Part shown: piece by piece, positions 6,161-61,281 of the stretch
Numbering within the stretch: the first letter of the stretch is position 1
How the letters are laid out: each line of letters starts with the position of its first letter
Origin: an uncultured virus (IMG/VR IMGVR_UViG_3300042337_000191)
Lineage: Duplodnaviria; Heunggongvirae; Uroviricota; Caudoviricetes
DNA length: 64,000 bases
Reading direction: 5' to 3' (one strand)
IMG/VR virus record: IMGVR_UViG_3300042337_000191
The notes under the pieces: generated by a model
Databases searched by the model: none
Told to the model about the DNA's origin: nothing
Seen by the model: only the letters and a program-made list of their open reading frames with translations
Made by a program: the position numbers and the translations under genes

Positions 6161-6907
6161 TCACTTCTTAATTCTTCCTCTGACGTAACCTTCCGGAATA
6201 GCTTCTTGTTTGTTAATTCTGGTGTTTGCTCTACCATTATTAATCCAAATAAGATTCGAAACAGCGCTACGGATTCTTTGTTTATCTTCTTCTGTTTTAT
6301 TAACTCCTTTTTTCGGAGTTTTCTTCCATCTTTGTTTTAGAGAATTAATTCTTTTTTCAATTTGTTCTTCAGATTGTTTTTTACCTACTTTTATATTTAT
6401 TTGAGTTTGTCTATATGTTGGATCTGTCCACAATTCTAAAGATTTTTGTCTTCTCATTTCTATTTGATCATTATCCTCAAATTGCTTTTTATTAGCTTCT
6501 CTCAATTTTTGTTTGGTTTCTTCTGACCTTGTTTTGCCAATAGACCAATGACCCCAATTTTCGTGTTTCTTATGAGATAGTGATATCTTTTCGCCTACTG
6601 TTAATATTTTTTCTCCATCTGTTGTCCAATGACCATTAAGATGGTTTATTAAATTATAATATTTTTTCCCTAACTCTTCATCTTTTATAAAAGAAAGATA
6701 CTTATATTCTTCTATCAATAACTGTTTTCTATCAAAAACCTTTTTAATAATCCTACGTTTAAAATCATGAGGTCTTCTTTTATAAGCGTCTCTCATCCAG
6801 TTCGAAGAACATTTATAACCATCAGTTTCGGTTCCCCAATGAGATCCAATATAATATCTTTTATGTTTTTTATCAAACCAAATATATACAAATCCATACT
6901 TTTCCAA
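6161..6907 (-). CDS. Free-standing GIY-YIG (Seg-like) homing endonuclease with NUMOD3-type DNA-binding repeats
   Basis: GFVYIW...YYIGSH N-terminal motif; GKTRSEETKQKLREA and GKKQSEEQIEKR repeats. Start placed at TTG 6907, 7 nt after AGGAG (track uses ATG 6934). Confidence 0.8.
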   Translation of the reverse strand: MEKYGFVYIWFDKKHKRYYIGSHWGTETDGYKCSSNWMRDAYKRRPHDFKRRIIKKVFDRKQLLIEEYKYLSFIKDEELGKKYYNLINHLNGHWTTDGEKILTVGEKISLSHKKHENWGHWSIGKTRSEETKQKLREANKKQFEDNDQIEMRRQKSLELWTDPTYRQTQINIKVGKKQSEEQIEKRINSLKQRWKKTPKKGVNKTEEDKQRIRSAVSNLIWINNGRANTRINKQEAIPEGYVRGRIKK

Positions 6908-6912
6908 TTTAT

Positions 6913-6946
6913 TACTCCTATGAATTGTTCCCATAGGAGTATTTAG
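6913..6946 (-). promoter_or_regulatory. Late promoter (CTAAATA) overlapping an RBS-sequestering hairpin
   Basis: 10-bp inverted repeat TACTCCTATG (6913-6922) / CATAGGAGTA (6932-6941) covers the AGGAG; CTAAATA lies at 6940-6946. Confidence 0.7.
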
Positions 6947-34567: not shown

Positions 34568-34588
34568 AATAAATATAGTTTATTTATT
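34568..34588. promoter_or_regulatory. Divergent late-promoter-like AATAAATA boxes
   Basis: AATAAATA on + (34568-34575) and on - (34581-34588) between the divergent gp48 and gp4 genes. Confidence 0.5.
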
Positions 34589-39336: not shown

Positions 39337-39369
39337 AAAAAAGGGAGCCAAAAGGCTCCCTCTTCATTT
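39337..39369. terminator. Bidirectional intrinsic terminator
   Basis: AGGGAGCC-AAAA-GGCTCCCT flanked by an A-run and a T-rich tail between convergent genes. Confidence 0.8.
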
Positions 39370-40271
39370 TATTCATTAGCAAGCTTCTTAAAGAACTCCA
39401 ATGACTCATCGTCATCTTCGTCATCACCAGAATACTTCGGCGCATGAGTCGCCTTAAATGCCGGAGCAGAATCTTCTTCCTGCCATGGGACTTCTGTATT
39501 CTCAGCAGCCTTACGCTTTGCTGCAGGTGAATCTTCAGCAAGAACCTTGGCCAGACGAGCACGTAGCTCTTCTTCTGACTTGAAGTTCTTAGGATCTAGG
39601 AATTCCTTAAGCGAATGCTCACTCTTCCAGATCTGCTCTAGTTCCTTATCGTTATCAGACAGAGGCTCTGGCTTACCAAACTCTGACTTATCGTAATTAC
39701 GATAACCTTCGACCTGACGAATCTTTAGCTTGAATGGTGCACCTGCCCAAAGATCGAATGGGTTGATTGCTTCCTCGTCAGCAAACTGAGGCTCCATTGC
39801 TTCCTTGAGCTTATCAAAGATCTTCTTACCATACTTGTAAAGAAAAACCTTACCCTCATTGGCAGGATTACCTGGATCGCTGATAACATGAATATTGCTG
39901 ATGAAGTGAAGACGACGCTTCTGCTTACGAGCAATTTCCTTGTTAGCTTCAATACCCGAATTCCAGAGCTTAGAATTATACTCAGAAACTGGATCGTTCT
40001 TACCAAGAGTTGTTAGTGAGTTCTCGATATACCATCCGCCCGGACCCTGGAAACCATGATCAAAGATACGAACGAAGGGAACATCCTCGCCAGCTGGCGG
40101 AGGGAGGAAACGAATAACAGCATAACCATTACCAGCCTTATCGACTGTTGGCGTCCAGAAGCGATCGTCGGCACCCTTGCCTTCGCCGCCTGATAGCTTA
40201 TTGAGTTCTGATGTTAGGGATTCGAGAGACTTCTTACCAGAAGCTGCCTTGAGGGACTTAAAATCTACCAT
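39369..40271 (-). CDS. gp32: Single-stranded DNA-binding protein
   Basis: DDRFW...DKAGNGYAVIRFLP; GKVFLYKYGKKIFDK; YRNYDKSEF; acidic tail. Start at ATG 40271 after GGAGA. Confidence 0.95.
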   Translation of the reverse strand: MVDFKSLKAASGKKSLESLTSELNKLSGGEGKGADDRFWTPTVDKAGNGYAVIRFLPPPAGEDVPFVRIFDHGFQGPGGWYIENSLTTLGKNDPVSEYNSKLWNSGIEANKEIARKQKRRLHFISNIHVISDPGNPANEGKVFLYKYGKKIFDKLKEAMEPQFADEEAINPFDLWAGAPFKLKIRQVEGYRNYDKSEFGKPEPLSDNDKELEQIWKSEHSLKEFLDPKNFKSEEELRARLAKVLAEDSPAAKRKAAENTEVPWQEEDSAPAFKATHAPKYSGDDEDDDESLEFFKKLANE

Positions 40272-40331
40272 GTATATTCTCCGTATAACAGTGTATGACA
40301 ATTGTATGATGGGTATTTGTATCACCCAACA

Positions 40332-40907
40332 TTATTTAGTATACCCCATATCGCTCATTATGTCAAGCATTACCTGCTTGATTTTCTCAATATCATATTT
40401 TATAAATGGAGTATATTTCACAACCTTCAATCGGACTTCTTCCCATATCGGGTCGTATTCAAGTTTAGAGTCCCACTGAGCCATCGCTTTAGTCATTTTA
40501 ATAAAGACACAGAGAGACTCTAAACTGATCTCGTTGCCAAGATATAACCTCAAAGCAGCAGGATGATGCTGCCCTCCTGATTCTTGTAGGATTTTCTTAA
40601 AATCATTTTTGAAATTGTAGGTGAGGGACTGATTACGCTTTTTCCAATTTTGGTATGTTAATTGGGCGGTCTCAGAATATGCAATATCTCGTATCCATAA
40701 CTTTGGATTATCGCTAAGATTAGCAACAAGAAACTCGTGATAATTCTCATTCTTAGCAAGTTTTTCAAAGAATATCTTATCCTTACGCTTCTCGAAAGAA
40801 GTATGTTTCAGACCTGTCTTTCCGTTGTATTTAATGTAGTCGTAATCAGTTTTGGTGAAGTGGTTTTTTAAAGCCACGTATTCTTTATATGCTTCAAAGG
40901 CTGACAT
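40332..40907 (-). CDS. gp59: Helicase loader
   Basis: YKEYVALKNHF....YDY.KYNGK......F.KRKD..FF.KLA; upstream of gp32 as in T4. Confidence 0.88.
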   Translation of the reverse strand: MSAFEAYKEYVALKNHFTKTDYDYIKYNGKTGLKHTSFEKRKDKIFFEKLAKNENYHEFLVANLSDNPKLWIRDIAYSETAQLTYQNWKKRNQSLTYNFKNDFKKILQESGGQHHPAALRLYLGNEISLESLCVFIKMTKAMAQWDSKLEYDPIWEEVRLKVVKYTPFIKYDIEKIKQVMLDIMSDMGYTK

Positions 40908-40917
40908 GTCAAAATAC

Positions 40918-40982
40918 CTAAATAAAGATGTCCGTCACGAGTTGGCGCTCTACGGACTCTACACCTGTTAAAGAGGTCCAGC
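40918..40982 (+). promoter_or_regulatory. Late promoter plus conserved structured leader (copy 1)
   Basis: CTAAATA followed by TGTCCGTCACGAGTTGGCGCTCTACGGACTCTA...CAGC-ATG; near-identical copy at 46679-46744. Confidence 0.7.
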
Positions 40983-41456
40983 ATGAATATTTATTACGTA
41001 TACGCATATATCCGAGCATCAGACAACTCCCCATATTATATCGGCAAGGGCAAAGGTCGAAGAGCCTTTAATAAATCTCATAGCGTATCAGTTCCCAAAG
41101 ACAAATCAAAAATAATATTTCTTGAAACTAATCTAACCAACGTTGGTGCTTGCGCTATTGAACGACGTTTAATACGTTGGTATGGAAGAAAAGATTTAAA
41201 CAATGGTATTCTCCATAATCGCTCGGATGGTGGCGAAGGACCAGATGGAGCAACCGTCTGGAACAAAGGAAAAACTGGAGTCTACTCAGAAGAAACTATT
41301 CAAAAGTTACGATCGAAAGCATCTGGCAAAAAACAATCAAAAGAAACAATCGAAAAAAGAATACAAAAAACAAAAGGCAAAACCAGAAGCGAAGAATTCA
41401 AACGACAACAATCCGAAAAAATTAAAGAATGGTGGCGTTTGAAGAAGCAATCTTAG
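40983..41456 (+). CDS. GIY-YIG-type homing endonuclease with NUMOD3 repeats, antisense insertion
   Basis: YYVYAY.R....[18 protein letters not shown]...[22 protein letters not shown]. Confidence 0.82.
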
Positions 41457-41973
41457 GTTGTTTCTGTGGAGCCATAATCTTTATACGCTTCGAAGGCTGA
41501 CATTTTATTTCAGGTTCTCCCTCTCTCATATAATTTATGAATTTAAAATAAAGTCCTTTCTCTCGGCCATAAGCCTCGATTTCCCAAGGACATTCCCAAT
41601 AATCCATCTCTTCGTGGAGGTATTTTTCACCCTGCCATTTGACCATGCGTACTGGCTTCCAAATGTCTTTCATTTCACCTTTAGCATATTGCTTTAGGTG
41701 GACCATTTCATGAGCTAAAGCTAGTAATGTTTCTTTCTTGTTAAGAGCTCTATCTACGCCTATAGTAAATTCTCTTTTCTGCTGACTGTCGTCAGTCCAG
41801 TCGCAATAAGCGTAGTCTCCGTCGATATGATCCATTTTCTCAAATTGGATAGTCAACTTTAAGTTGTTGTAAAGTTTACCCCCTCCAATGAGATATTTTC
41901 CATAAAAATTCGCCGCCTTCTTGACTATTGGCAGGGATATATGTGAGGGTTTACCGATTGTTTTTATGCGCAT
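41422..41973 (-). CDS. HExxH zinc metallopeptidase-like protein
   Basis: [11 protein letters not shown] and PWEIEAY motifs. Start at ATG 41973 after GGAGG; TATAAATA at 42001-42008. Confidence 0.7.
41453..41503 (-). pseudogene. Remnant duplicate of the gp59 5' end
   Basis: ATGTCAGCCTTCGAAGCGTATAAAGATTAT ([10 protein letters not shown]) versus the gp59 start ATGTCAGCCTTTGAAGCATATAAAGAATAC ([10 protein letters not shown]); stops after 16 codons. Confidence 0.75.
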
Positions 41974-42003
41974 ATTAGCCTCCAACAATGGTTCACCCAC
42001 TAT

Positions 42004-42222
42004 TTATATCGGCAATCTAGCCCCACGTTTCAGAACATTAAGGTTTTCAGCCTCCAATTGAATCTTAGACTTCATTACTGGGTCTTTTCGTATCCAATAC
42101 GCCGCAGTCTCTATTTCTAGATTATTTTTCTCGCACCAAAAAACTACGGCGTCAATATATTCAATATTTTTATCTTGACAGAGTTTTTCTACTTCTTCTA
42201 TGAAGCCTGAATTTTTAAGCAT
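42004..42222 (-). CDS. gp33: Late transcription coactivator
   Basis: YIDAVV.WCE.N.LEIE.......K.KI..EAENLN.L. Confidence 0.85.
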   Translation of the reverse strand: MLKNSGFIEEVEKLCQDKNIEYIDAVVFWCEKNNLEIETAAYWIRKDPVMKSKIQLEAENLNVLKRGARLPI

Positions 42223-42383
42223 TGTTTTTCATATTCCTTCAATTCGGCTATTCGTCGTTCAAGATATTGTTGTATATGACTATCGTTCAATCTTCGAGCC
42301 TTATGTCTGTTCAACTCCTGTTGTAATGACCACATTACCGTGCTAGCATGAGAGTATGCATAAGTCTCTTTGATTGTGTCCAT
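42198..42383 (-). CDS. Hypothetical protein
   Basis: ORF in operon; start taken at MDTIKETY. Confidence 0.5.
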   Translation of the reverse strand: MDTIKETYAYSHASTVMWSLQQELNRHKARRLNDSHIQQYLERRIAELKEYEKQCLKIQAS

Positions 42384-42387
42384 AGAA

Positions 42388-42789
42388 CTAATCCTTGATT
42401 GTGATTGTCGTAGATTCACCTTTGGTCATATTGTAAAGAGTGTAAGCGTTATTTGGACTCAACCGAACGCATCCGTGACTAGCAGGTCGACCCAAATTGC
42501 CCACGTGAGGGGTAGCATGAATAGCATAACCACCAGAAAAGAATATAGAGTGCGGCATGGGAGCATTGTCATATTTCTTTGAATAATGTATAGGCTGATA
42601 AGAATAAGGGCGGAAAGTTCCAGTTGGCGTATAATATCCCTTCCGGGCTGTAGATACTGGCCAACGTTCAATTAACTCTCCATCCTCGTAAATTGTCATT
42701 GACTGGCTGCGTTTCGAAACTACTATATCATAGTTTGCTAGAGCAGAGGTAGAGAATAGAACTAATGCAGAGATCAGTAGTTTGTTCAT
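42388..42789 (-). CDS. L,D-transpeptidase (YkuD family) with signal peptide
   Basis: WPVSTAR.G..TP.G; MPHSIFF.GGYAIHAT.....LGRPASHGCVRL (catalytic His and Cys). Confidence 0.9.
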   Translation of the reverse strand: MNKLLISALVLFSTSALANYDIVVSKRSQSMTIYEDGELIERWPVSTARKGYYTPTGTFRPYSYQPIHYSKKYDNAPMPHSIFFSGGYAIHATPHVGNLGRPASHGCVRLSPNNAYTLYNMTKGESTTITIKD

Positions 42790-42926
42790 TCTGAATCCTC
42801 AATTTGATCGAGCTTTTCTCTTACAAATACAGCAAACTCTGGATCTTCCTTGAGATGCTGCTCTAACTGAGCAGTAGTCATCTGTTCAGACATAAAGCAT
42901 TCCCAAAGCAATTCATAATTATTCAT
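42786..42926 (-). CDS. Small hypothetical protein (46 aa)
   Basis: MNNYELLWECFMSEQMTTAQLEQHLKEDPEF...; coupled by ATGA overlaps at both ends. Confidence 0.5.
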   Translation of the reverse strand: MNNYELLWECFMSEQMTTAQLEQHLKEDPEFAVFVREKLDQIEDSE

Positions 42927-43126
42927 GATAGATATCCTAGGATAGAACCAACAGGGCCAACAAAAACACCAATACAGCGAAGAATAAACTTAGCGGTTAC
43001 AGGATTGTCCATTGTATTCCAGATAGCAATAATGTTCATCACCCATCCAACAAAAAAGACAAGCCATATTACAGTTAGAGTAATGTAATATGCTAGGCCA
43101 TGATCTTCTTCACGATAATTTGCCAT
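42923..43126 (-). CDS. Small membrane protein
   Basis: Two hydrophobic segments; GWVMNI...R.IGVFV.P.G.ILGY. Confidence 0.6.
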   Translation of the reverse strand: MANYREEDHGLAYYITLTVIWLVFFVGWVMNIIAIWNTMDNPVTAKFILRCIGVFVGPVGSILGYLS

Positions 43127-43141
43127 AATATATTCTCCAGA

Positions 43142-43252
43142 TTAGCGACCTGACTGTTTACGCCAAATCCATGATGAAAGGTTTAGAAGCGTTTGATGAA
43201 ATTTGTCTACCAAAGAACTGTTCCAGAACCAATGAAGCTTACGGTTTGACAT
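43142..43252 (-). CDS. Small hypothetical protein (36 aa)
   Basis: MSNRKLHWFWNSSLVDKFHQTLLNLSSWIWRKQSGR preceded by GGAGA. Confidence 0.45.
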   Translation of the reverse strand: MSNRKLHWFWNSSLVDKFHQTLLNLSSWIWRKQSGR

Positions 43253-43271
43253 TTTGTTCTCCGTTAAGAAA

Positions 43272-43348
43272 TGGCGATCCCGGCACGATTCGAACGTGCG
43301 ACCCACAGATTAGAAGTCTGTTGCTCTATCCAGCTGAGCTACGGGACC
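43272..43348 (-). tRNA. tRNA-Arg(UCU)
   Basis: GGTCCCGTAGCTCAGCTGGATAGAGCAACAGACTTCTAATCTGTGGGTCGCACGTTCGAATCGTGCCGGGATCGCCA; folds as a cloverleaf, anticodon TCT, encoded CCA. Confidence 0.95.
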
Positions 43349-43357
43349 ATTGTTAGT

Positions 43358-43386
43358 ATTATACGCTGATCCGAATGGAAAAGCAA
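43358..43386 (-). promoter_or_regulatory. Sigma70-like promoter for the tRNA
   Basis: TTGCTT-17 nt-TATAAT. Confidence 0.7.
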
Positions 43387-43391
43387 GTTGT

Positions 43392-43601
43392 TTATACAAA
43401 CATTCCAAAAATGCCAGAAAGAACAAAGAACGTAATTGCAGAAGCCAATGTGATCTCAATTACGCCTGTCGCCCAATAACCCAGAATAGCTCCCAGAAAT
43501 AGACCTGCAACGGCGCAGATATAGACATTAGTACTGAGAGCAAAGTTGAACTCACGCATACCCGTATATTTGTCTTTGTTACTCATAATATATCCTTTCA
43601 A
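43392..43601 (-). CDS. Small membrane protein
   Basis: Two predicted transmembrane segments. Confidence 0.5.
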   Translation of the reverse strand: MKGYIMSNKDKYTGMREFNFALSTNVYICAVAGLFLGAILGYWATGVIEITLASAITFFVLSGIFGMFV

Positions 43602-43604
43602 AAT

Positions 43605-43763
43605 GAAAATGCGACTGTTCTGTTTCTAGGTCAGTCGCCAACCCAATGAGGATTAAGCTGCTAGAGCGTAACCTTCAAATGATGCATCATTATCGTTTGC
43701 ATCTACGTTTCGCCTTTGGTCTCCTCGAAGCCTTAATGTAGATAATCGAGCCTATACACCCCC
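43605..43763 (-). ncRNA. ssrA: Two-piece tmRNA, coding piece
   Basis: Begins GGGGGTG at 43763; tag frame 43700-43653 = ANDNDASFEGYALAA*; 3' hairpin GCGACTG...CAGTCGC. The 3' end is approximate. Confidence 0.88.
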
Positions 43764-43764
43764 A

Positions 43765-44229
43765 TCATAAACTGACATATGGATTCGTTTTTTTCATAAC
43801 AGATTTTAATCTACCACGAACCCAATCTTTAGGATAATCCTCTAAAGAGAACTGTCCTTCGGAAACGCCATCATTGAACCAATATCTCTTGTTTCTAATT
43901 TTTCTGCCATCTGTTCCTTTTTCATAAGGAGAAGGAACGCCTGATCTTATCCATTTACCAGTGGCAGATTTCTTACCATTTCCCCATCTAATAGCATTGG
44001 TTATTGCAGCGCCTTTTTTTGCTCCTTCACGAATTGCTATAAAAGTGCATTCGTCAGAAGTAAGAAGACCTAACAAACCTTTCCAAGCCAATAAATCTTG
44101 CCAGTGACCATGTGTTTCATATAAAACTCTATGGGCTTCGGCATGTTCTTCAATAGTAAGTTCTATCAAGTTATTTGGTTCATCTGTTCCGCCTAAATGT
44201 TTGGGAACAATATGATGTATGTGTTTCAT
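43765..44229 (-). CDS. HNH homing endonuclease inside the tmRNA intervening segment
   Basis: HHIVPKHLGGTDEPNNLIELTIEEHAEAH HNH motif; C-terminal W.NDG...W.RGR motif. Confidence 0.85.
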   Translation of the reverse strand: MKHIHHIVPKHLGGTDEPNNLIELTIEEHAEAHRVLYETHGHWQDLLAWKGLLGLLTSDECTFIAIREGAKKGAAITNAIRWGNGKKSATGKWIRSGVPSPYEKGTDGRKIRNKRYWFNDGVSEGQFSLEDYPKDWVRGRLKSVMKKTNPYVSL

Positions 44230-44236
44230 TTAATCC

Positions 44237-44270
44237 TCCTGTCAATCATACTTATTTATAATAGACAGGA
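44237..44270 (-). promoter_or_regulatory. Late promoter TATAAATA in the loop of an RBS-sequestering hairpin
   Basis: TCCTGTC/GACAGGA stem overlaps AGGAGG of the HNH gene; TATAAATA at 44253-44260. Confidence 0.75.
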
Positions 44271-44283
44271 TTTTATCAGTTTA

Positions 44284-44352
44284 TGGTGGAGGTGAGGGGA
44301 TTCGCACCCCTGTCTTACCAACCTATATGCTAAGTCTCAACGACCTCGGCAA
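44284..44352 (-). ncRNA. ssrA: Two-piece tmRNA, acceptor piece
   Basis: ...GACAGGGGTGCGAATCCCCTCACCTCCACCA: T-arm plus CACCTCC-A-CCA, which pairs with GGGGGTG to give the G3.U70 alanine identity pair. The 5' end is approximate. Confidence 0.85.
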
Positions 44353-44414
44353 ACTTTATTTATTCTTTTGGAATTTCGTTTTCAAATTCTTCAATTAGGG
44401 GATGTGGTGGTTCT

Positions 44415-44537
44415 TTAGTGGCACGGTCTGTTAGAACTGTCCCGTACAATGCACTTACCGACGGTCGCCAACTCAGCGCAGCCAGCAACACCCAGACTAA
44501 GACACACCATTGCTATTGCTATATAAACCTTTTTCAT
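44415..44537 (-). CDS. Small lipoprotein (40 aa)
   Basis: MKKVYIAIAMVCLSLGVAGC signal peptide with lipobox. Confidence 0.55.
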   Translation of the reverse strand: MKKVYIAIAMVCLSLGVAGCAELATVGKCIVRDSSNRPCH

Positions 44538-44784
44538 TCTTATCCTCCGGATTATAATCGTGCTTTTCAGTTTCATGAAGAGCAACAGAAAACCATTCAG
44601 TAGAACCTTCACGTTGATACTGAAGATCCTGCATTGGAACCATTACCATTTCCTTAGTCTGAGGATGAACCATCATCTTAGGAAACATTACCATACGAAA
44701 ATCTACAATCGGCTTTTTCTTATCAACGCCTCCCGTTGGGAGACTGCTAGCAGCAATTGCACCATCTGGTCCAAGAATACTCAT
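44497..44784 (-). CDS. Hypothetical protein
   Basis: 95-aa ORF in operon. Confidence 0.55.
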   Translation of the reverse strand: MSILGPDGAIAASSLPTGGVDKKKPIVDFRMVMFPKMMVHPQTKEMVMVPMQDLQYQREGSTEWFSVALHETEKHDYNPEDKNEKGLYSNSNGVS

Positions 44785-45134
44785 GTCTTTTGTCCTTTTA
44801 CCTTTTCAAGCAACTGACCTAGATATTCAATCGCTTTATCATTAAATGTAACGTCGTCTAAAACACCAACAACGCAATATTGCTTTGCTGCCATTGCATT
44901 TCCATCCGAAGACTTATCGTATTCAATGATAAACAGATGCCGATCTTTGGACATCATAACTTCATTCATCTTATCATTCTTTATACCATTATAAAGAGTA
45001 ACAAGAGCTTTATCATCAATCATCTTCATAAATTCTTTATTTTCATAACACTTCAATTCTGACTCTGCTGATAAAGCAGAGCCAGTTAACATTGAAGAGA
45101 TAATCACACCATACATGATATTCTTCATCATCAC
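44781..45134 (-). CDS. Putative exported protein
   Basis: Signal-peptide-like N-terminus; paired Cys. Confidence 0.55.
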   Translation of the reverse strand: MMMKNIMYGVIISSMLTGSALSAESELKCYENKEFMKMIDDKALVTLYNGIKNDKMNEVMMSKDRHLFIIEYDKSSDGNAMAAKQYCVVGVLDDVTFNDKAIEYLGQLLEKVKGQKT

Positions 45135-45322
45135 TTCCTTGTGGTTACTTCCTGAACCTTTTGAGCAACCTTTTGATAATCAATCTTACCAAAATTGGTT
45201 GGACGCTTTGGAGGTAGAGGAACTTCAACATACTTTGTAACTGGAGGCGCAATAACGTCGCCAGCAATTGCACTACCACCCATAAGCATGGCAGCGATAG
45301 TCGATAAGATAATCTTATTCAT
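45131..45322 (-). CDS. Putative exported protein
   Basis: Signal peptide followed by a VPLPPKRP motif. Confidence 0.55.
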   Translation of the reverse strand: MNKIILSTIAAMLMGGSAIAGDVIAPPVTKYVEVPLPPKRPTNFGKIDYQKVAQKVQEVTTRK

Positions 45323-45496
45323 CTTATTTCCTTTCGGTATTATTTACGATGTTCTTAAGCAAAGCAACATCGTAATTTGTGATACGAGAAAAAGCATTCA
45401 ACGCTTCTTCCCTTGATACTCCTTCTTTTTCGAGAAGGAACTTTGCTACGATCTTTATATCATTAAAGTCTTCGTAGAATTCTACATCTTTAGTGT

Positions 45497-46624
45497 TCAT
45501 TGAACCACCCTCAACAAAATCGTGTTCTCGTTGATACGATACGCAAGAGGCTTTTCTGTCTTGAGATCATCAAGGACTTTTCGTAGAACAAGTTTACCAC
45601 CCTCAAGTATGCGCTTGAGAAAATCGTTCGGTTCTTTCCTGCCCACAGAGCGGGAAATAGAACTACTTTCGTCATAGTTCGTAATGCTAGTTCCCTTGAC
45701 CTGTAGCCCACCACGATCAATCGCTGTAAGCCTCGTAATCGTCTTATACTTTGTATTGAAAGTCCAGAGTTCCATTGCACCGATGATTTTTTCCGGTGAC
45801 ACTGAAGCAATTTTATAAGTTGCATCTTCCTTTTGGAACTTGAGACCCTTGATCTTCTTCTCAACTGATACTGCTCGTGGCTTGCGAGCCGTTCTAACTT
45901 TCTTCGTATTTGAAGAATATCTCTCCGCATCTTCGATGAGGGTGTTGTAGAACGAGACGAGTTTCTTGATTTCTGTCTTTTTAAGGTGACGATAACCTTC
46001 TTTAAGCTGATCATCTTTTCCCTCATACGCTTCAAGCAATTCGTCGAGCACTGGGGAAAATTTAGCAATGATTGAAGTAGCATAGGCTGCAGGAATATTG
46101 TTGCTCTGCAGCCACTCATACATCGAAAACTCTACATTCTCGTAGATGTAATCGTCAATCAATCCTTCAATCTCTCCCAAAATATCATGAGTTTTCTCAC
46201 GCATACGATCCTGGATAGAAATCCTCGGAGTTTCTGATTCCTCCTTGGGTTCTTCCTTCGCCTTGTCCCACATATTTAGGATCTTAGAACTGAAAAACTG
46301 CATCGTAGTTCCCGATGGCTTATGACCACGAGAGATCATACGTGCAATCCAAGCAGCAGTCAAAGGAATATCTACGTCGGAGATCCTCGAAAGCTTCTTG
46401 GCTAGGTCTGGCTTACCAGTGTTCTTGAAATATTCCTTTAGATAATCACGAGCATCATTGGCAGTGCACATGTAGTTATACCATGTGAAACACTGACCCT
46501 CGTTGACATCCTGGGTCATAAGAGGCTCGTCGCCCAGATATTTCTTGTTCACAATATACTGTTCGGATCGAGAGACCCGAATAGTCTTTGGTTTACGCTT
46601 AATGAGTGCTGGGCGACGAGCCAT
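45497..46624 (-). CDS. Conserved T4-like hypothetical protein
   Basis: WYNY motif and C-terminal IIGA.ELW.FNTK...L.VKGTSI...RINE.TILL. Start at MARRP after AAGGAG and a TTGTCT-17-TATAAT promoter (46650-46678). Confidence 0.7.
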   Translation of the reverse strand: MARRPALIKRKPKTIRVSRSEQYIVNKKYLGDEPLMTQDVNEGQCFTWYNYMCTANDARDYLKEYFKNTGKPDLAKKLSRISDVDIPLTAAWIARMISRGHKPSGTTMQFFSSKILNMWDKAKEEPKEESETPRISIQDRMREKTHDILGEIEGLIDDYIYENVEFSMYEWLQSNNIPAAYATSIIAKFSPVLDELLEAYEGKDDQLKEGYRHLKKTEIKKLVSFYNTLIEDAERYSSNTKKVRTARKPRAVSVEKKIKGLKFQKEDATYKIASVSPEKIIGAMELWTFNTKYKTITRLTAIDRGGLQVKGTSITNYDESSSISRSVGRKEPNDFLKRILEGGKLVLRKVLDDLKTEKPLAYRINENTILLRVVQ

Positions 46625-46678
46625 GAATATCTCCTTCAATCGTATACATATTATACTTTATATAAGGGTCAAAGACAA

Positions 46679-46744
46679 CTAAATATTATTGTCCGTCACG
46701 AGTTGGGAGCTCTACGGACTCTAACGCTAAGAAGGAGCATCAGC
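46679..46744 (+). promoter_or_regulatory. Late promoter plus conserved structured leader (copy 2)
   Basis: CTAAATA followed by TGTCCGTCACGAGTTGGGAGCTCTACGGACTCTA...CAGC-ATG. Confidence 0.7.
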
Positions 46745-47173
46745 ATGGATATTTATGATCCAATCGGTAAAGCATTAGGTCTCGAACCTATCGAATTTAA
46801 TTATGATATAAAAACCTATTGTCCAGACCAAGAAATTATTCCTTGGAACAAAGGTTTGACAAAAGAAGATCCTTACGTCGCTGAAATAGGCAAAAGAATT
46901 TCTCAAGCAAAACAAAATAATCCTACCAAACCTTGGAACAAAGGTTTGACAAAAGAAGATCAACGTGTAAGAGAAAACTCTATAAAGGCAGCTAATACTA
47001 AAAAACAGCAGGGGTTTTATAAAGATTGCGGAAAATATCTCCCTAAACTCATAGGAGATAAAAATCATATGAAGTCTTCAGAACATAGAAAACGTATGTC
47101 TGAATTAGCTTCTAGAAGATATAAAAAATGGAACGAGGACGGTAGCTGGACTTGGGGCTACCGTCCTCTGTAA
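46745..47173 (+). CDS. NUMOD-like (PWNKG repeat) endonuclease-derived protein with no recognisable nuclease domain
   Basis: Two PWNKGLTKED repeats (31-bp exact DNA repeat at 46841 and 46931). Start at ATG 46745 after AAGGAG. Confidence 0.6.
   Translation: MDIYDPIGKALGLEPIEFNYDIKTYCPDQEIIPWNKGLTKEDPYVAEIGKRISQAKQNNPTKPWNKGLTKEDQRVRENSIKAANTKKQQGFYKDCGKYLPKLIGDKNHMKSSEHRKRMSELASRRYKKWNEDGSWTWGYRPL
47135..47168 (-). terminator. 12-bp perfect hairpin, likely terminator of the DUF932 gene
   Basis: GAGGACGGTAGC-10 nt-GCTACCGTCCTC followed on - by GTTCCATTTTTT. Confidence 0.65.
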
Positions 47174-47174
47174 C

Positions 47175-48155
47175 TTATGCCGCTTGTTCGGCCATTTCTA
47201 CTGCAAGCTCAAGAGCCTTAGTCTTGAGACCCTTGTTGTAGCCATACCAAGCCGACTGCATTCGAGTGTCAGCCGTACGACCGAGAACGTGATCGGTCAT
47301 AAACGTAACAGCGTTAAAAGGCTGCCACCAGCTGCCCTGAGCGAATTCGCTACCAGGCTGAGTGTCGAGAATACCGAGAGCCATATTGGCATTCTTCGAA
47401 CGCTTACCCTCAACCTTATCTTCCGAAGTAGCACCAGCCAGCGGGAAGATACGCTCGAAGTACTCGACGATCGTTTCAGTCTTGGCCTTCTTCGAACCAA
47501 GGAACTGAGCCATCTCCTTATACTTCTGGAGCTTGTCGGTTGCAATGCCAAGCATATCCTTCACGTTAGCAGGGTTAAACTGCTTACGATGGGAAATCTT
47601 GACCATACGCTCTACCTTCGAACTGAGCGAGAGCGAGAGCGTATTGTTGCAAACGACTCGGATCGGCGTAAACCGAACGTCAGTAGAGAAACCATACTTG
47701 TGGAAATTAGAAAATAGAAGATAAGAGTCAATTTGATCTCCTTTGAAAAGCTCGAAAGATTCCTTGATCTTTGCGAGACCCCAAACGATCTGACCTCCCT
47801 TTAGCGAACCAGCGGTATGCATCTCCATATCGCCAGCCATCACAAACTCATTAAAGAAGTCGAACGCCTCTGCATTCTGCACGGGGTTCCAGTCGTCAGA
47901 GACAACGTCAAGCATCTTCTTGTCCTTCATACGAACAAGAGCAGACTGACCTGTCTCCATTACACTATCCGGATCGTTTTCATCCAGAATAGCAAAAGTA
48001 GGAAACTTCTGGACTTCCCAATTGAGACCAGCAGCTTCCAACATCTGTTCCGGGGTGAGATCCCCGAGAACCTTAACACCAAGACCATGCCACGGAACAT
48101 CGCCAGCATAAGCCATCTGAGCGACACCATCAACGAATTCGATTTCATGAGCCAT
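47175..48155 (-). CDS. DUF932 (DUF945-like) family protein
   Basis: MAHE...MAY....PWHGLG; PVQN.EAF.FF; TAGSL.GG..VW.LA; TPIRVVCNNTL; W..FNAVT...DH. Confidence 0.85.
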   Translation of the reverse strand: MAHEIEFVDGVAQMAYAGDVPWHGLGVKVLGDLTPEQMLEAAGLNWEVQKFPTFAILDENDPDSVMETGQSALVRMKDKKMLDVVSDDWNPVQNAEAFDFFNEFVMAGDMEMHTAGSLKGGQIVWGLAKIKESFELFKGDQIDSYLLFSNFHKYGFSTDVRFTPIRVVCNNTLSLSLSSKVERMVKISHRKQFNPANVKDMLGIATDKLQKYKEMAQFLGSKKAKTETIVEYFERIFPLAGATSEDKVEGKRSKNANMALGILDTQPGSEFAQGSWWQPFNAVTFMTDHVLGRTADTRMQSAWYGYNKGLKTKALELAVEMAEQAA

Positions 48156-58099: not shown

Positions 58100-58735
58100 T
58101 CACCTAAATGATGGTCCGGCAACCCACATAACCAAAGAGTTTCTTATTCCCTTTGTTACTGGTGTCACTTCGTGAATAGTAAATGATGGAAATAATAATA
58201 CAGAGCCTCTTGTTGGTCTAATCTTAAAATCACGTGCATAAGGAAAACGTAGCTCGCCTCCTTCAAACTCATCTGGGTCTGAAAGTAATACAGTCAATGA
58301 TAGCTTTCTTGCTATTGTATTATAATCTCTATCCGAGTGAGCAATATAATGCTGCTCATCGTTGCCGTTATATTCCAGGAATTGCATAGGCTCTACGGGA
58401 CCAGTCAAATCGAAATGAAAATGTCTTTGATTGGCCGTGACTACTACTTCTCTGATCCTCTCGATTACAAAAGCCAAATTCTCTTTTTGTTGTTCGGGCG
58501 ACGCCTGATAAACCGTGCAGTTTCTTACGCTCTTGTCAACATTTCCCTCGCCAACAGAAGAAACATTCGGCGTAGTGTTGTTCTTATAATAATCAATAAT
58601 ATCGTTACACTCTTTGGCGTCGAATACCTTATGATAAATTGCGAACTCTTCTATATTGTCTCGATGTACTCCGGGAATATCAAAAATACTAGGTATCTTG
58701 ATTTCATTTTGATCATCACCAGTATCAATAATCAT
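58100..58735 (-). CDS. 2OG-Fe(II) oxygenase (PKHD-type)
   Basis: H.D (HSD)...RKLS..V.LSDP..FEGGEL...FPS...HEVTPVTKG.R.SLV.W. Confidence 0.9.
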   Translation of the reverse strand: MIIDTGDDQNEIKIPSIFDIPGVHRDNIEEFAIYHKVFDAKECNDIIDYYKNNTTPNVSSVGEGNVDKSVRNCTVYQASPEQQKENLAFVIERIREVVVTANQRHFHFDLTGPVEPMQFLEYNGNDEQHYIAHSDRDYNTIARKLSLTVLLSDPDEFEGGELRFPYARDFKIRPTRGSVLLFPSFTIHEVTPVTKGIRNSLVMWVAGPSFR

Positions 58736-58738
58736 TTA

Positions 58739-59386
58739 TCACTCCGGAATTTTAGGATCTTTAATAGGCGGAAATGGTTTGGCTTTCCCAGTTTTGTTAG
58801 GAACAAAATTAAACCATCCTGTAAGAATATACTTCTCTTGCGTTGGAGATACTACACCACGATGGAAATGAGTCCAGTCGACTGGCCATATCATGGTCAA
58901 TCCCTTCTCTGGGCGTAGATTAATACGTTGATGATAGAATTGCGTTCCGCCTCGATCAGTAACGTCATTAAGATATGTCATAAACGCCAGATGACGAGAT
59001 ACTCCTGGCTCAACACAACTTAGACGTTCGGAATGCCAAATTTTAAATCCGCCACCCGGAGGATAATATTGAATATTTGGTGGGCTAAGAACATCTACAT
59101 CATCACCATACGCTGACAAAGGATATACCTTTTGATACTCATTCATTATGTCATGCAAATGAGCATAATACTCTTTTAGAATTGTATCGTCGCTTAAATG
59201 ACAATCAACGGAGTCTTTAATTGATTTGTTAACAACTCTCTGGCCAAACTCGTTATGAATAATTCCAGCACTCTTATCTGAGTTATTATTAAACCATTCA
59301 ATAACTCTATCGCAGAAACTGGTGTCTTTCATATACCATCCCAGGATGAAATTACCTGGGATTGGATTTAGTATATGTGATTTCAT
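58739..59386 (-). CDS. 2OG-Fe(II) oxygenase
   Basis: IQYY.PGGGF..WHSE; YLNDV..GGT.F; WP..WTH.HRG; KYI.TGW. Confidence 0.9.
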   Translation of the reverse strand: MKSHILNPIPGNFILGWYMKDTSFCDRVIEWFNNNSDKSAGIIHNEFGQRVVNKSIKDSVDCHLSDDTILKEYYAHLHDIMNEYQKVYPLSAYGDDVDVLSPPNIQYYPPGGGFKIWHSERLSCVEPGVSRHLAFMTYLNDVTDRGGTQFYHQRINLRPEKGLTMIWPVDWTHFHRGVVSPTQEKYILTGWFNFVPNKTGKAKPFPPIKDPKIPE

Positions 59387-60844: not shown

Positions 60845-61281
60845 CAGAAGTCCCCCGGAGACACCTGAAGGCAACGAAGACCCGCCGAACGCCACATCTT
60901 AACCACTCGATCACGATCTTCGAGAACGAGCACAGGCTCATATCCCGCTTCATAGATCTGCTCGAGCAATTCGAACTTTACGATATCGTCATCACGACGA
61001 TCTCCTAACTTACGCATATAAAGAGCATGATAAGGAATATCATTCTCAGTAAGCCAGTCTAGAGTATCCTGACGACACTTCTCGTCACGAGCAGTGCAAA
61101 GGACAATCTTAATATCGTAGTCCGCCGCCATATCTAATAGGGCGACGACTTCCTCGATAGGCTCGTCCTTATGGGCATTAGAATGCCATGCATTCCAGTC
61201 TTTATGCCCATTGGTAATGTAATGGATACGATGCTCTGTATTAGCAATCGTTCCATCAATATCCACGATCCAACACTTCAT
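60844..61281 (-). CDS. HAD-family phosphatase (PseT/PNK 3'-phosphatase-like)
   Basis: DIDGT, TAR, MR..GD.R.D..VK, EDR..VV.MWR..GL.CLQV..GDF. Confidence 0.85.
   Translation of the reverse strand: MKCWIVDIDGTIANTEHRIHYITNGHKDWNAWHSNAHKDEPIEEVVALLDMAADYDIKIVLCTARDEKCRQDTLDWLTENDIPYHALYMRKLGDRRDDDIVKFELLEQIYEAGYEPVLVLEDRDRVVKMWRSAGLRCLQVSPGDF

Follow-up and report, generated by a model that had tools for sequence, protein, structure and literature searches.

A stretch of 64,000 nucleotides from an uncultured virus (IMG/VR record IMGVR_UViG_3300042337_000191; Caudoviricetes), here called the window, carries the same sequence motif at positions 40918–40985 (copy A) and 46679–46747 (copy B), each time directly in front of an endonuclease-type gene. 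We describe this element, termed the cassette, together with its relatives in IMG/VR. The overall best reading of its sequence, to which we give somewhat better than an even chance, is that two facing late promoters flank a region of overlap, and that the outward RNA would be antisense to the ribosome-binding site of the nuclease gene and would also serve as a leader for the neighbouring gene.

Homing endonucleases are model selfish genes. To our knowledge, the means by which such genes avoid harming their hosts have been worked out only for a few examples from T4 and Aeh1, in which every gene has a hairpin of its own. If the reading given above is true, GIY-YIG, HNH, TnsA-like and nuclease-less cargo would share a mode of regulation that is itself a mobile, exchangeable module, and Rfam would lack a large RNA family. 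Such a finding would also suggest that lytic phages use, under late promoters, the kind of antisense RNA control known from insertion sequences and type I toxin-antitoxin systems. The model lends itself to direct tests, given a short cassette with exactly predicted starts.

The cassette and its family

The repeat in the window is real. The 17-mer TGTCCGTCACGAGTTGG occurs exactly twice, against 0.06 occurrences expected, and none of 100 shuffles reached two. The two copies have a mean column identity of 82% over 126 aligned columns and score 73–77 bits with R1, a covariance model built from an alignment of 49 distinct copies that also provided the statistics of the main helix. Plus-strand open reading frames (ORFs) at 40983–41456 and 46745–47173 directly follow copies A and B, respectively, amid minus-strand genes. 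A first-pass annotation, made from the letters of this DNA alone, had reported the same element before two different genes inserted in antisense, and both positions indeed read as it described.

The proteins encoded behind the two copies share little. Cargo A (P0001, 40983–41456, plus strand) is a GIY-YIG-type homing-endonuclease-like protein of 157 amino acids with a NUMOD3-like tail (phrog_15526, phrog_314). Cargo B (P0002, 46745–47173, plus strand) has 142 amino acids with PWNKG/NUMOD3-like repeats and no recognisable nuclease domain; neither Pfam, PHROGs nor the protein atlas gave a nuclease or catalytic domain for it. The sole similarity between the two proteins is a WNKG hexapeptide. The annotation had held the leader to be more conserved than its cargo, and the relatives make this case more strongly than it was put. 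Among 129 distinct leaders (cassette copies) in IMG/VR loci, 116 lead into an ATG and an ORF of 100 amino acids or more, and these 116 cargo ORFs fall into 10 N-terminal clusters with 67, 22, 11, 4, 4, 2, 2, 2, 1 and 1 members. They include several GIY-YIG subfamilies, HNH (PF01844), HNH_3 (PF13392), DUF7487/TnsA-like and NUMOD3-only types.

Relatives of P0001 in IMG/VR number 188, and nearly all of the best 80 of these, which were kept, have the same upstream architecture. R1 matches all 80 loci fetched by one stem variant, whatever the cargo, and 77 of the 80 sources of the homologue set. It matches 2 of 73 control loci, which were fetched by a 14-mer scan of IMG/VR and are mostly chance matches. 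In the window R1 finds two copies, and in the nearest genome record (G001) it finds four. The latter pair by the sequence of the main hairpin, with GTCCGT in both window copies and GTAGGT in the other two. The further cassettes of G001 (loci L220 and L223) lie outside the window, before a NUMOD3-only paralogue of P0002 (36% identity) and before a classic GIY-YIG gene. A loose pattern had 67 matches in 185,579 cellular genomes; a single one passes R1, on a contig of 9.4 kb assigned to a Dechloromonas metagenome-assembled genome.

No family of Rfam 15 matches the cassette at its gathering score (the whole window gives just a tRNA and a permuted tmRNA). Scans of both copies at E ≤ 10 returned unrelated families with 11.6–14.9 bits, which is chance level. 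The element in the window is one member of a large family. The description of an unnamed, covarying structured element that travels with endonuclease-type genes is supported. Nothing points to the suggested ribozyme. Among cultured phages, a megablast search with 7 kb gave nothing beyond a tRNA-sized match, and an R1 search of S-SRM01, S-N03 and Motura gave no copy. The copies found in cultured phages are only variants, in Variovorax phage V45v66 (L354) and Pseudoalteromonas phage vB_Psh_XG4 (L355). We found no description of the cassette in the literature, in a search that left subscription journals largely outside, so that its absence there is not proven.

Fold, strand and facing boxes

The main hairpin is located at 40930–40957 in copy A and at 46691–46719 in copy B, and its stems are identical in the two copies. 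It can form on either strand (P1/P2 on the plus strand, HP2′ on the minus strand), is almost purely Watson-Crick and has two conserved one-sided bulges. Across the 49 aligned copies, helix 1 is 97.2% paired and 10 of its 11 pairs change on both sides, while slid controls reach 30–41.5%. The GUCCGU/ACGGAC stem enclosing GAG/CUC, first drawn from the two window copies, is supported by covariation in the relatives. The variable hairpin at the ribosome-binding site, drawn in the same way on the plus strand, is supported as well: all five of its pairs show double changes, and they are 73–80% paired. This hairpin has just 3–5 bp and the Shine-Dalgarno sequence lies mostly in its loop. In copy A, the plus strand at 40958–40982 forms merely a short hairpin of 4 bp (ACCU/AGGU).

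The minus strand has a larger structure. In an alignment of 122 copies in this orientation (A5), RNAalifold draws two hairpins. These are 96.2% paired, against 32–47% for slid controls, and both partners change in 16 of the 25 pairs. The main hairpin is 98.9% paired on this strand. When one list of 19 pairs was applied to both strands of the 122 copies, the minus strand gave 213 G·U pairs and 85 mismatches, whereas the plus strand gave 24 G·U pairs and 274 mismatches. Most of this asymmetry is seen with the first minus-strand hairpin, HP1′, which alone has 197 G·U pairs and 70 mismatches on the minus strand versus 19 and 248 on the plus strand. For HP2′, leaving out the loop-closing pair, the counts are 12 G·U pairs and 4 mismatches on the minus strand, against 0 and 16 on the plus strand. 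Read on the plus strand, the inner pairs of the main helix include no G·U pair; across 56 distinct rows they have 10 mismatches of the A·C or C·A type, and these mismatches are G·U pairs on the minus strand. Folding of both strands gave a lower minimum free energy for the minus strand in 111 of the 122 copies, by 3.6 kcal/mol on average, and most of this advantage comes from the hairpin on the side of the ribosome-binding site. By covariation and pair composition, the selected fold probably lies on the strand opposite the gene. The element had been called a structured 5′ leader; the structure and its covariation stand, and the assignment to an mRNA leader is not supported.

HP1′ lies at 40958–40982 (minus strand) in copy A, with a base of the form GCUG.../...UAGAG that contains a G·U pair and a loop complementary to the Shine-Dalgarno sequence of the endonuclease gene. 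In copy B it lies at 46720–46744 (minus strand; CUGAUGCU/AGCGUUAG) and has 8 bp with two G·U pairs; its loop, CCUUCUU, is likewise complementary to the Shine-Dalgarno sequence. The CUG/UAG base keeps its G·U pair in 120 of 121 copies, and the next two pairs vary and are rich in G·U (21 GU and 2 UG in one, 45 UG in the other). This base explains two conserved plus-strand motifs, since UCUAA and CAGC are the two sides of the minus-strand stem and pair with each other on that strand only. A pseudoknot or switch between the hairpin loop and the (C/U)CAGC before the start codon had been proposed from the two window copies, and the family speaks against it. The longest complementarity between loop and CAGC averages 2.68 bp, compared with 2.72 bp in shuffled loops, and at least 4 bp is reached in only 12% of 121 copies. 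A further helix, P0, formed by the upstream box and codons 2–4 of the cargo gene, appears in the minimum free energy structure of 66 of 114 RNAs when the plus strand is folded, and of 72 of 114 for the minus strand. It consists of six A-U pairs with no compensating changes.

The fold is flanked by two boxes that face each other. The upstream TAAATA is invariant in all 49 aligned copies, and in 103 of 120 copies a spacer of 5 nt separates it from the first G of the main hairpin. In copy A the box CTAAATA is at 40918–40924 on the plus strand (TAAATA at 40919–40924), and the 5-nt spacer leads to a predicted +1 at G40930. In copy B it is at 46679–46685 (plus strand), the spacer is TTATT and the predicted +1 is G46691. 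On the other side, TATTTA is found just after the ATG in 112 of 118 copies, at offsets of 0 (14 copies), 1 (5), 2 (91) or 5 (2), and is read as M-Y-L, M-I-F-I or M-x-I-Y. Its retention in three reading frames indicates an element at the nucleotide level, not a protein motif. Read on the minus strand, TAAATA is followed by a 5-nt spacer and GCUG in 88 of 115 copies; where the ATG sits nearer to the box, additional bases make up the distance. The minus-strand box of copy A is at 40988–40993, in codons 2–4 of the endonuclease gene, with the spacer TTCAT and a predicted +1 at the G opposite C40982; a late-box scan of the window found a AATAAATA box at 40995 on the minus strand. That of copy B is at 46750–46755, also in codons 2–4, with the spacer TCCAT and a predicted +1 opposite C46744.

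T4 late promoters are described as TATAAATA at −13 to −6, and Aeh1 uses CTAAATA from −12 (PMC1524935). With this geometry, both boxes of the cassette place the predicted +1 on a G. At the level of the motif, the upstream box thus resembles a T4-type late promoter directly before the endonuclease ORF, and the in-gene box is a candidate promoter on the opposite strand at the 5′ end of its target gene. The window encodes a gp33-like late-promoter transcription co-factor (42004–42222, minus strand; phrog_254, E = 3.9e-15), which indicates that the phage has T4-type late transcription. Late-type boxes precede structural genes in the window. The surroundings are T4-like, with a gp32-like gene at 39369–40325 and a gp59-like gene at 40332–40907, and baseplate, tail-tube and head-closure genes are also present. 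Divergent, overlapping AATAAATA boxes occur at 34568 and 34588 between the minus-strand baseplate module and the plus-strand head-closure module, which is a natural pair of opposed late-promoter boxes within the same phage.

The outward RNA and competing explanations

According to the favoured reading, each copy would be the 5′ end of a mobile homing-endonuclease insert, in which a cassette of about 85 bp lies between two facing T4-type late boxes. From the plus-strand box ((A/C)TAAATA, 5 nt, G), transcription of the nuclease mRNA would begin precisely where the main hairpin has its base. The minus-strand box, kept in codons 2–4 in any frame, would give rise to an outward RNA whose first base is the G opposite CAGC. 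From the positions of the boxes we infer promoter activity on both strands and the existence of the outward RNA. If both boxes fired, the RNAs would overlap across the whole 5′ untranslated region of the endonuclease gene, roughly 65 nt, and in each RNA a hairpin would start no more than 1 nt from the 5′ end. The outward RNA would be complementary to this entire region, including the Shine-Dalgarno sequence, so that the predicted RNA is structured and covers the ribosome-binding site of its target. It would fold as HP1′, with the anti-Shine-Dalgarno loop, and HP2′, followed by an A(C)UUUUAUUUAU tail. This tail, after the main hairpin, averages 6.9 U in 12 nt, and the outward RNA may either end there or continue into the neighbouring gene.

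Selection would act on the fold of the outward RNA. The G·U pairs would stabilise HP1′ on the minus strand, and the same positions would be A·C mismatches on the plus strand, leaving the ribosome-binding site of the nuclease weakly paired. The anti-Shine-Dalgarno loop of HP1′ would then face the loop of the mRNA that bears the Shine-Dalgarno sequence. By antisense pairing, the outward RNA may restrain the translation of a nuclease that could do harm, much as art200 acts on the IS200 transposase. IS10 RNA-OUT/RNA-IN and SymR/symE are further cis-antisense RNA systems of the same kind. Where a phage gene follows, for example gp59 at the insertion site of copy A (locus A), the outward RNA would double as its leader, and we treat the putative antisense repressor and the leader for the neighbour as two faces of one predicted RNA. 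A wider version of this proposal is that the cassette is a portable "governor" of about 85 bp that any nuclease ORF can acquire. With its two facing late promoters and a covarying antisense RNA it would resemble a type I antitoxin, and it would repay the host phage with a late promoter and a ribosome-binding site for the displaced gene. We put this forward tentatively, as possible at clearly less than an even chance. As the main hairpin is common to pairs of copies within a genome, the predicted RNAs might also cross-regulate several nuclease genes in trans.

Several results weigh against the favoured reading. In 27 of the 115 copies the minus-strand spacing is different or no match is found, and the minus-strand box has a G at −12 in 22 of 112 copies. 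The variants in phages V45v66 and XG4 keep the hairpins, and the minus-strand box is 14 nt from GCTG (displaced by 9 nt) in one and absent in the other. Since both boxes are invariant, P0 pairing is inseparable from promoter function by covariation. Single-sequence folding of the window copies is weak evidence, with modest z values for A and B of −1.13 and −2.57 on the minus strand and −1.16 and −0.32 on the plus strand. It is the comparison across the family that carries the case; in it, the counts of copies and cells include phylogenetically related sequences and are not counts of independent events. The 3′ end of the outward RNA raises a further difficulty. A simple terminator scan called the hairpin and its tail in neither window copy, and the U content of the spacer is 0.42 in contexts that require read-through versus 0.43 in the others (p = 0.9), which gives no sign of tuning. 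At locus A, gp59 needs transcripts that cross the hairpin; a strong terminator would sever it from its operon.

Part of the evidence can be read in favour of a structured 5′ leader of the endonuclease mRNA, in which the 5′-terminal hairpin would stabilise the message and the hairpin at the ribosome-binding site would tune translation or bind a protein. The plus-strand box does let the main hairpin begin at the +1, this hairpin is 97% Watson-Crick whichever strand is read, and the short hairpin covaries. However, such a leader would be selected on the strand that carries by far the larger number of mismatches, and it accounts neither for UCUAA and CAGC nor for a TATTTA that is independent of the reading frame; its loop/CAGC pseudoknot is not enriched. 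We consider this explanation unlikely, although both strands may matter, with stronger selection for folding on the minus strand. Alternatively, the fold could act in minus-strand read-through transcripts of the flanking operon with no promoter of its own. A three-way junction of P0′, HP1′ and HP2′ would then be a stabiliser, a processing site, a partial terminator or an insulator that spares the neighbour. Of the 116 assessable copies, 83 have their upstream neighbour on the opposite strand, and gp59, whose translation was coupled to that of the upstream ORF until the insert arrived, now starts 22 nt past the hairpin. In addition, RNAalifold draws P0 on the minus strand, where it is present in the minimum free energy structures of 72 of the 114 copies, and the variants of cultured phages retain their hairpins with no well-placed box. 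Nevertheless, the cassette is equally conserved in the 33 copies in which the upstream neighbour is co-oriented, the strict 5-nt distance between box and G on both strands is a requirement of late promoters, and the six A-U pairs of P0 show no compensation. This possibility also appears improbable to us.

P0 would have a different meaning in a translational mask of the T-even type, a mechanism established for I-TevI, segB and mobE (PMC2988022). In transcripts started upstream, UAAAUA would pair with codons 2–4 (UAUUUA) and close the leader around the start codon, while late transcripts would lack the 5′ arm and be translated. Its presence in 66 of 114 plus-strand read-through RNAs and the frame independence of TATTTA agree with such a mask. 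Yet most copies, including both in the window, are antisense to their neighbours and would have little read-through to be masked; the helix is made of A-U pairs only and does not covary, and the excess of G·U pairs on the minus strand is left unexplained. The hairpin at the ribosome-binding site is itself downstream of the late start. We regard the mask as very unlikely. The least likely explanation, with hardly any probability in our estimate, is an element at the DNA level with no RNA function, in which hairpins of single-stranded DNA or shared homology would drive recombination and the shuffling of cargo, as in the PeSL cassettes discussed below. It would suit the very different cargo behind one cassette, the apparent hot spot at the insertion site of copy B (locus B), the stem sequences common to pairs of copies within one genome and the almost purely Watson-Crick main hairpin. 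However, the stems change their sequence freely and stay paired, which homology-driven exchange would not require. The one-sided bulges and the many G·U pairs of HP1′ point to a folded single strand, most simply an RNA between two promoter boxes.

Insertion sites, known systems and further features

Insert A, which consists of the cassette and its gene, is 567 bp long (40908–41474, plus strand) and is absent from relatives whose flanks are 77–84% identical. In these relatives the upstream ORF runs into gp59. The gene for the gp59-like helicase loader (40332–40907, minus strand) starts at 40907, and its ribosome-binding site AGGU is the complement of the ACCT of insert A just before the box. 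The endonuclease-free relatives thus reveal that insert A sits at the start of gp59 and supplies its ribosome-binding site, a concrete case of an insert that re-equips a displaced host gene. At the far edge of the insert, the first 29 nt or so of gp59, including its native Shine-Dalgarno sequence, are duplicated (41475–41503, minus strand). This duplicate opens a remnant ORF of 16 codons and is a footprint of the insertion. An independent insert at the same gp59 site (L381–L387) has a different stem sequence and the same TATTTAGG-type end.

Insert B (46658–47186, plus strand; edges approximate, about ±15 nt) is located between a DUF932 gene and the sigma-70-like promoter of a gene for a 375-amino-acid protein, and it is also absent from relatives. 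This promoter, at 46678–46650, serves the 375-amino-acid gene and is flank sequence: it is kept beyond the cassette and is present in insert-free alleles. The intergenic site of locus B looks like an insertion hot spot. In related contigs it holds other inserts (L486, L498 and L515), one of them about 1.5 kb long, and L515 carries a different endonuclease gene with its own cassette. The orientation of the neighbours given above for 116 copies was taken from crude ORF calls, and 8 copies with no ORF and 5 with too short a flank were excluded. In 25 of 127 copies a minus-strand ORF begins no more than 20 nt from the cassette; with a limit of 60 nt, the count is 58 of 127.

Control of homing endonuclease genes by a late promoter and RNA structure is an established principle in T-even phages and Aeh1, and endonuclease genes can also harbour promoters that act on neighbouring host genes (PMC2988022). 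The cassette resembles these systems (I-TevI, I-TevII, I-TevIII, segB and mobE), which belong to T4-type phages and have a TATAAATA-type late promoter just upstream and structure around the ribosome-binding site. Their hairpins are gene-specific, lie on the sense strand and contain the promoter. In contrast, the cassette is portable and common to unrelated nuclease families, has a fold that fits the antisense strand and carries a second, facing late box. The selection on the sense (mRNA) strand that marks the T-even systems is not what the cassette shows, with its 274 plus-strand against 85 minus-strand mismatches.

Another likeness is with art200/tnpA of IS200 (PMC4513863), where the 5′ untranslated region and ribosome-binding site of a selfish element are covered by a structured cis-antisense RNA that starts in or next to the 5′ end of the gene, and the mRNA has its own stem-loop at the ribosome-binding site. 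There, bacterial sigma-70 promoters are used and the RNAs were experimentally shown; the cassette has phage late-type boxes, homing-endonuclease cargo and a predicted RNA. In cyanophage S-PM2, the antisense RNA CfrI links psbA and the F-CphI homing endonuclease gene (Millard et al. 2010, as cited in PMC5931967 and PMC10690425). Like the RNA predicted for the cassette, CfrI is antisense and lies beside a free-standing homing endonuclease gene of a T4-like phage; it differs from the cassette in being described for a single locus. R1 gave no copy in the T4-like cyanophages S-SRM01 and S-N03; S-PM2 was not among the genomes searched.

Among metagenomic loci, partly from freshwater, the "fractured gene" loci of Dassa et al. 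(2009) have hairpins and TATAAATA before GIY-YIG or Vsr-like endonuclease genes, and the invading element was proposed to bring control signals for the neighbouring gene (PMC2677866). Those hairpin motifs differ from the cassette: theirs, for example GATTACACTTCC paired with GGAAGTGTAAT, hold the promoter in the loop and have other sequences and architectures (text and supplementary Figure S4). The authors report neither an antisense-strand fold nor a second box. The PeSL cassettes of T4-like phages (PMC4122927) are also small motifs of promoter and stem-loop; they lie beside variable genes and have been connected with modular shuffling. PeSLs have early promoters and are described as recombination points, while the cassette has late boxes, nuclease genes and strand-specific covariation. 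We also rejected the cassette as a PeSL on its promoter type, as its boxes are late-type and not early sigma-70-type, and the sigma-70-like promoter by copy B belongs to the flank.

Several other features of the window were observed. A third homing-endonuclease-like gene (6164–6946, minus strand; 257 amino acids, phrog_314) is co-oriented with structural genes and has no cassette. A CTAAATA box ends 5 nt ahead of its ATG and would give a leaderless late RNA. The region 43653–44345 (minus strand) matches the Rfam family tmRNA_permuted (RF04321) with 52.8 bits, for a gathering score of 47. ARAGORN found no tmRNA in this region, only a tRNA-Arg(tct) at 43272–43348, and the permuted-tmRNA match is not confirmed. 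An HNH-like ORF (43765–44229, minus strand) lies inside the match, with a TATAAATA box 31 nt upstream of the ORF. Two adjoining 2OG-Fe(II) oxygenase-like genes are located at 58103–59386 (minus strand), and a polynucleotide kinase-like gene is located at 60847–61281.

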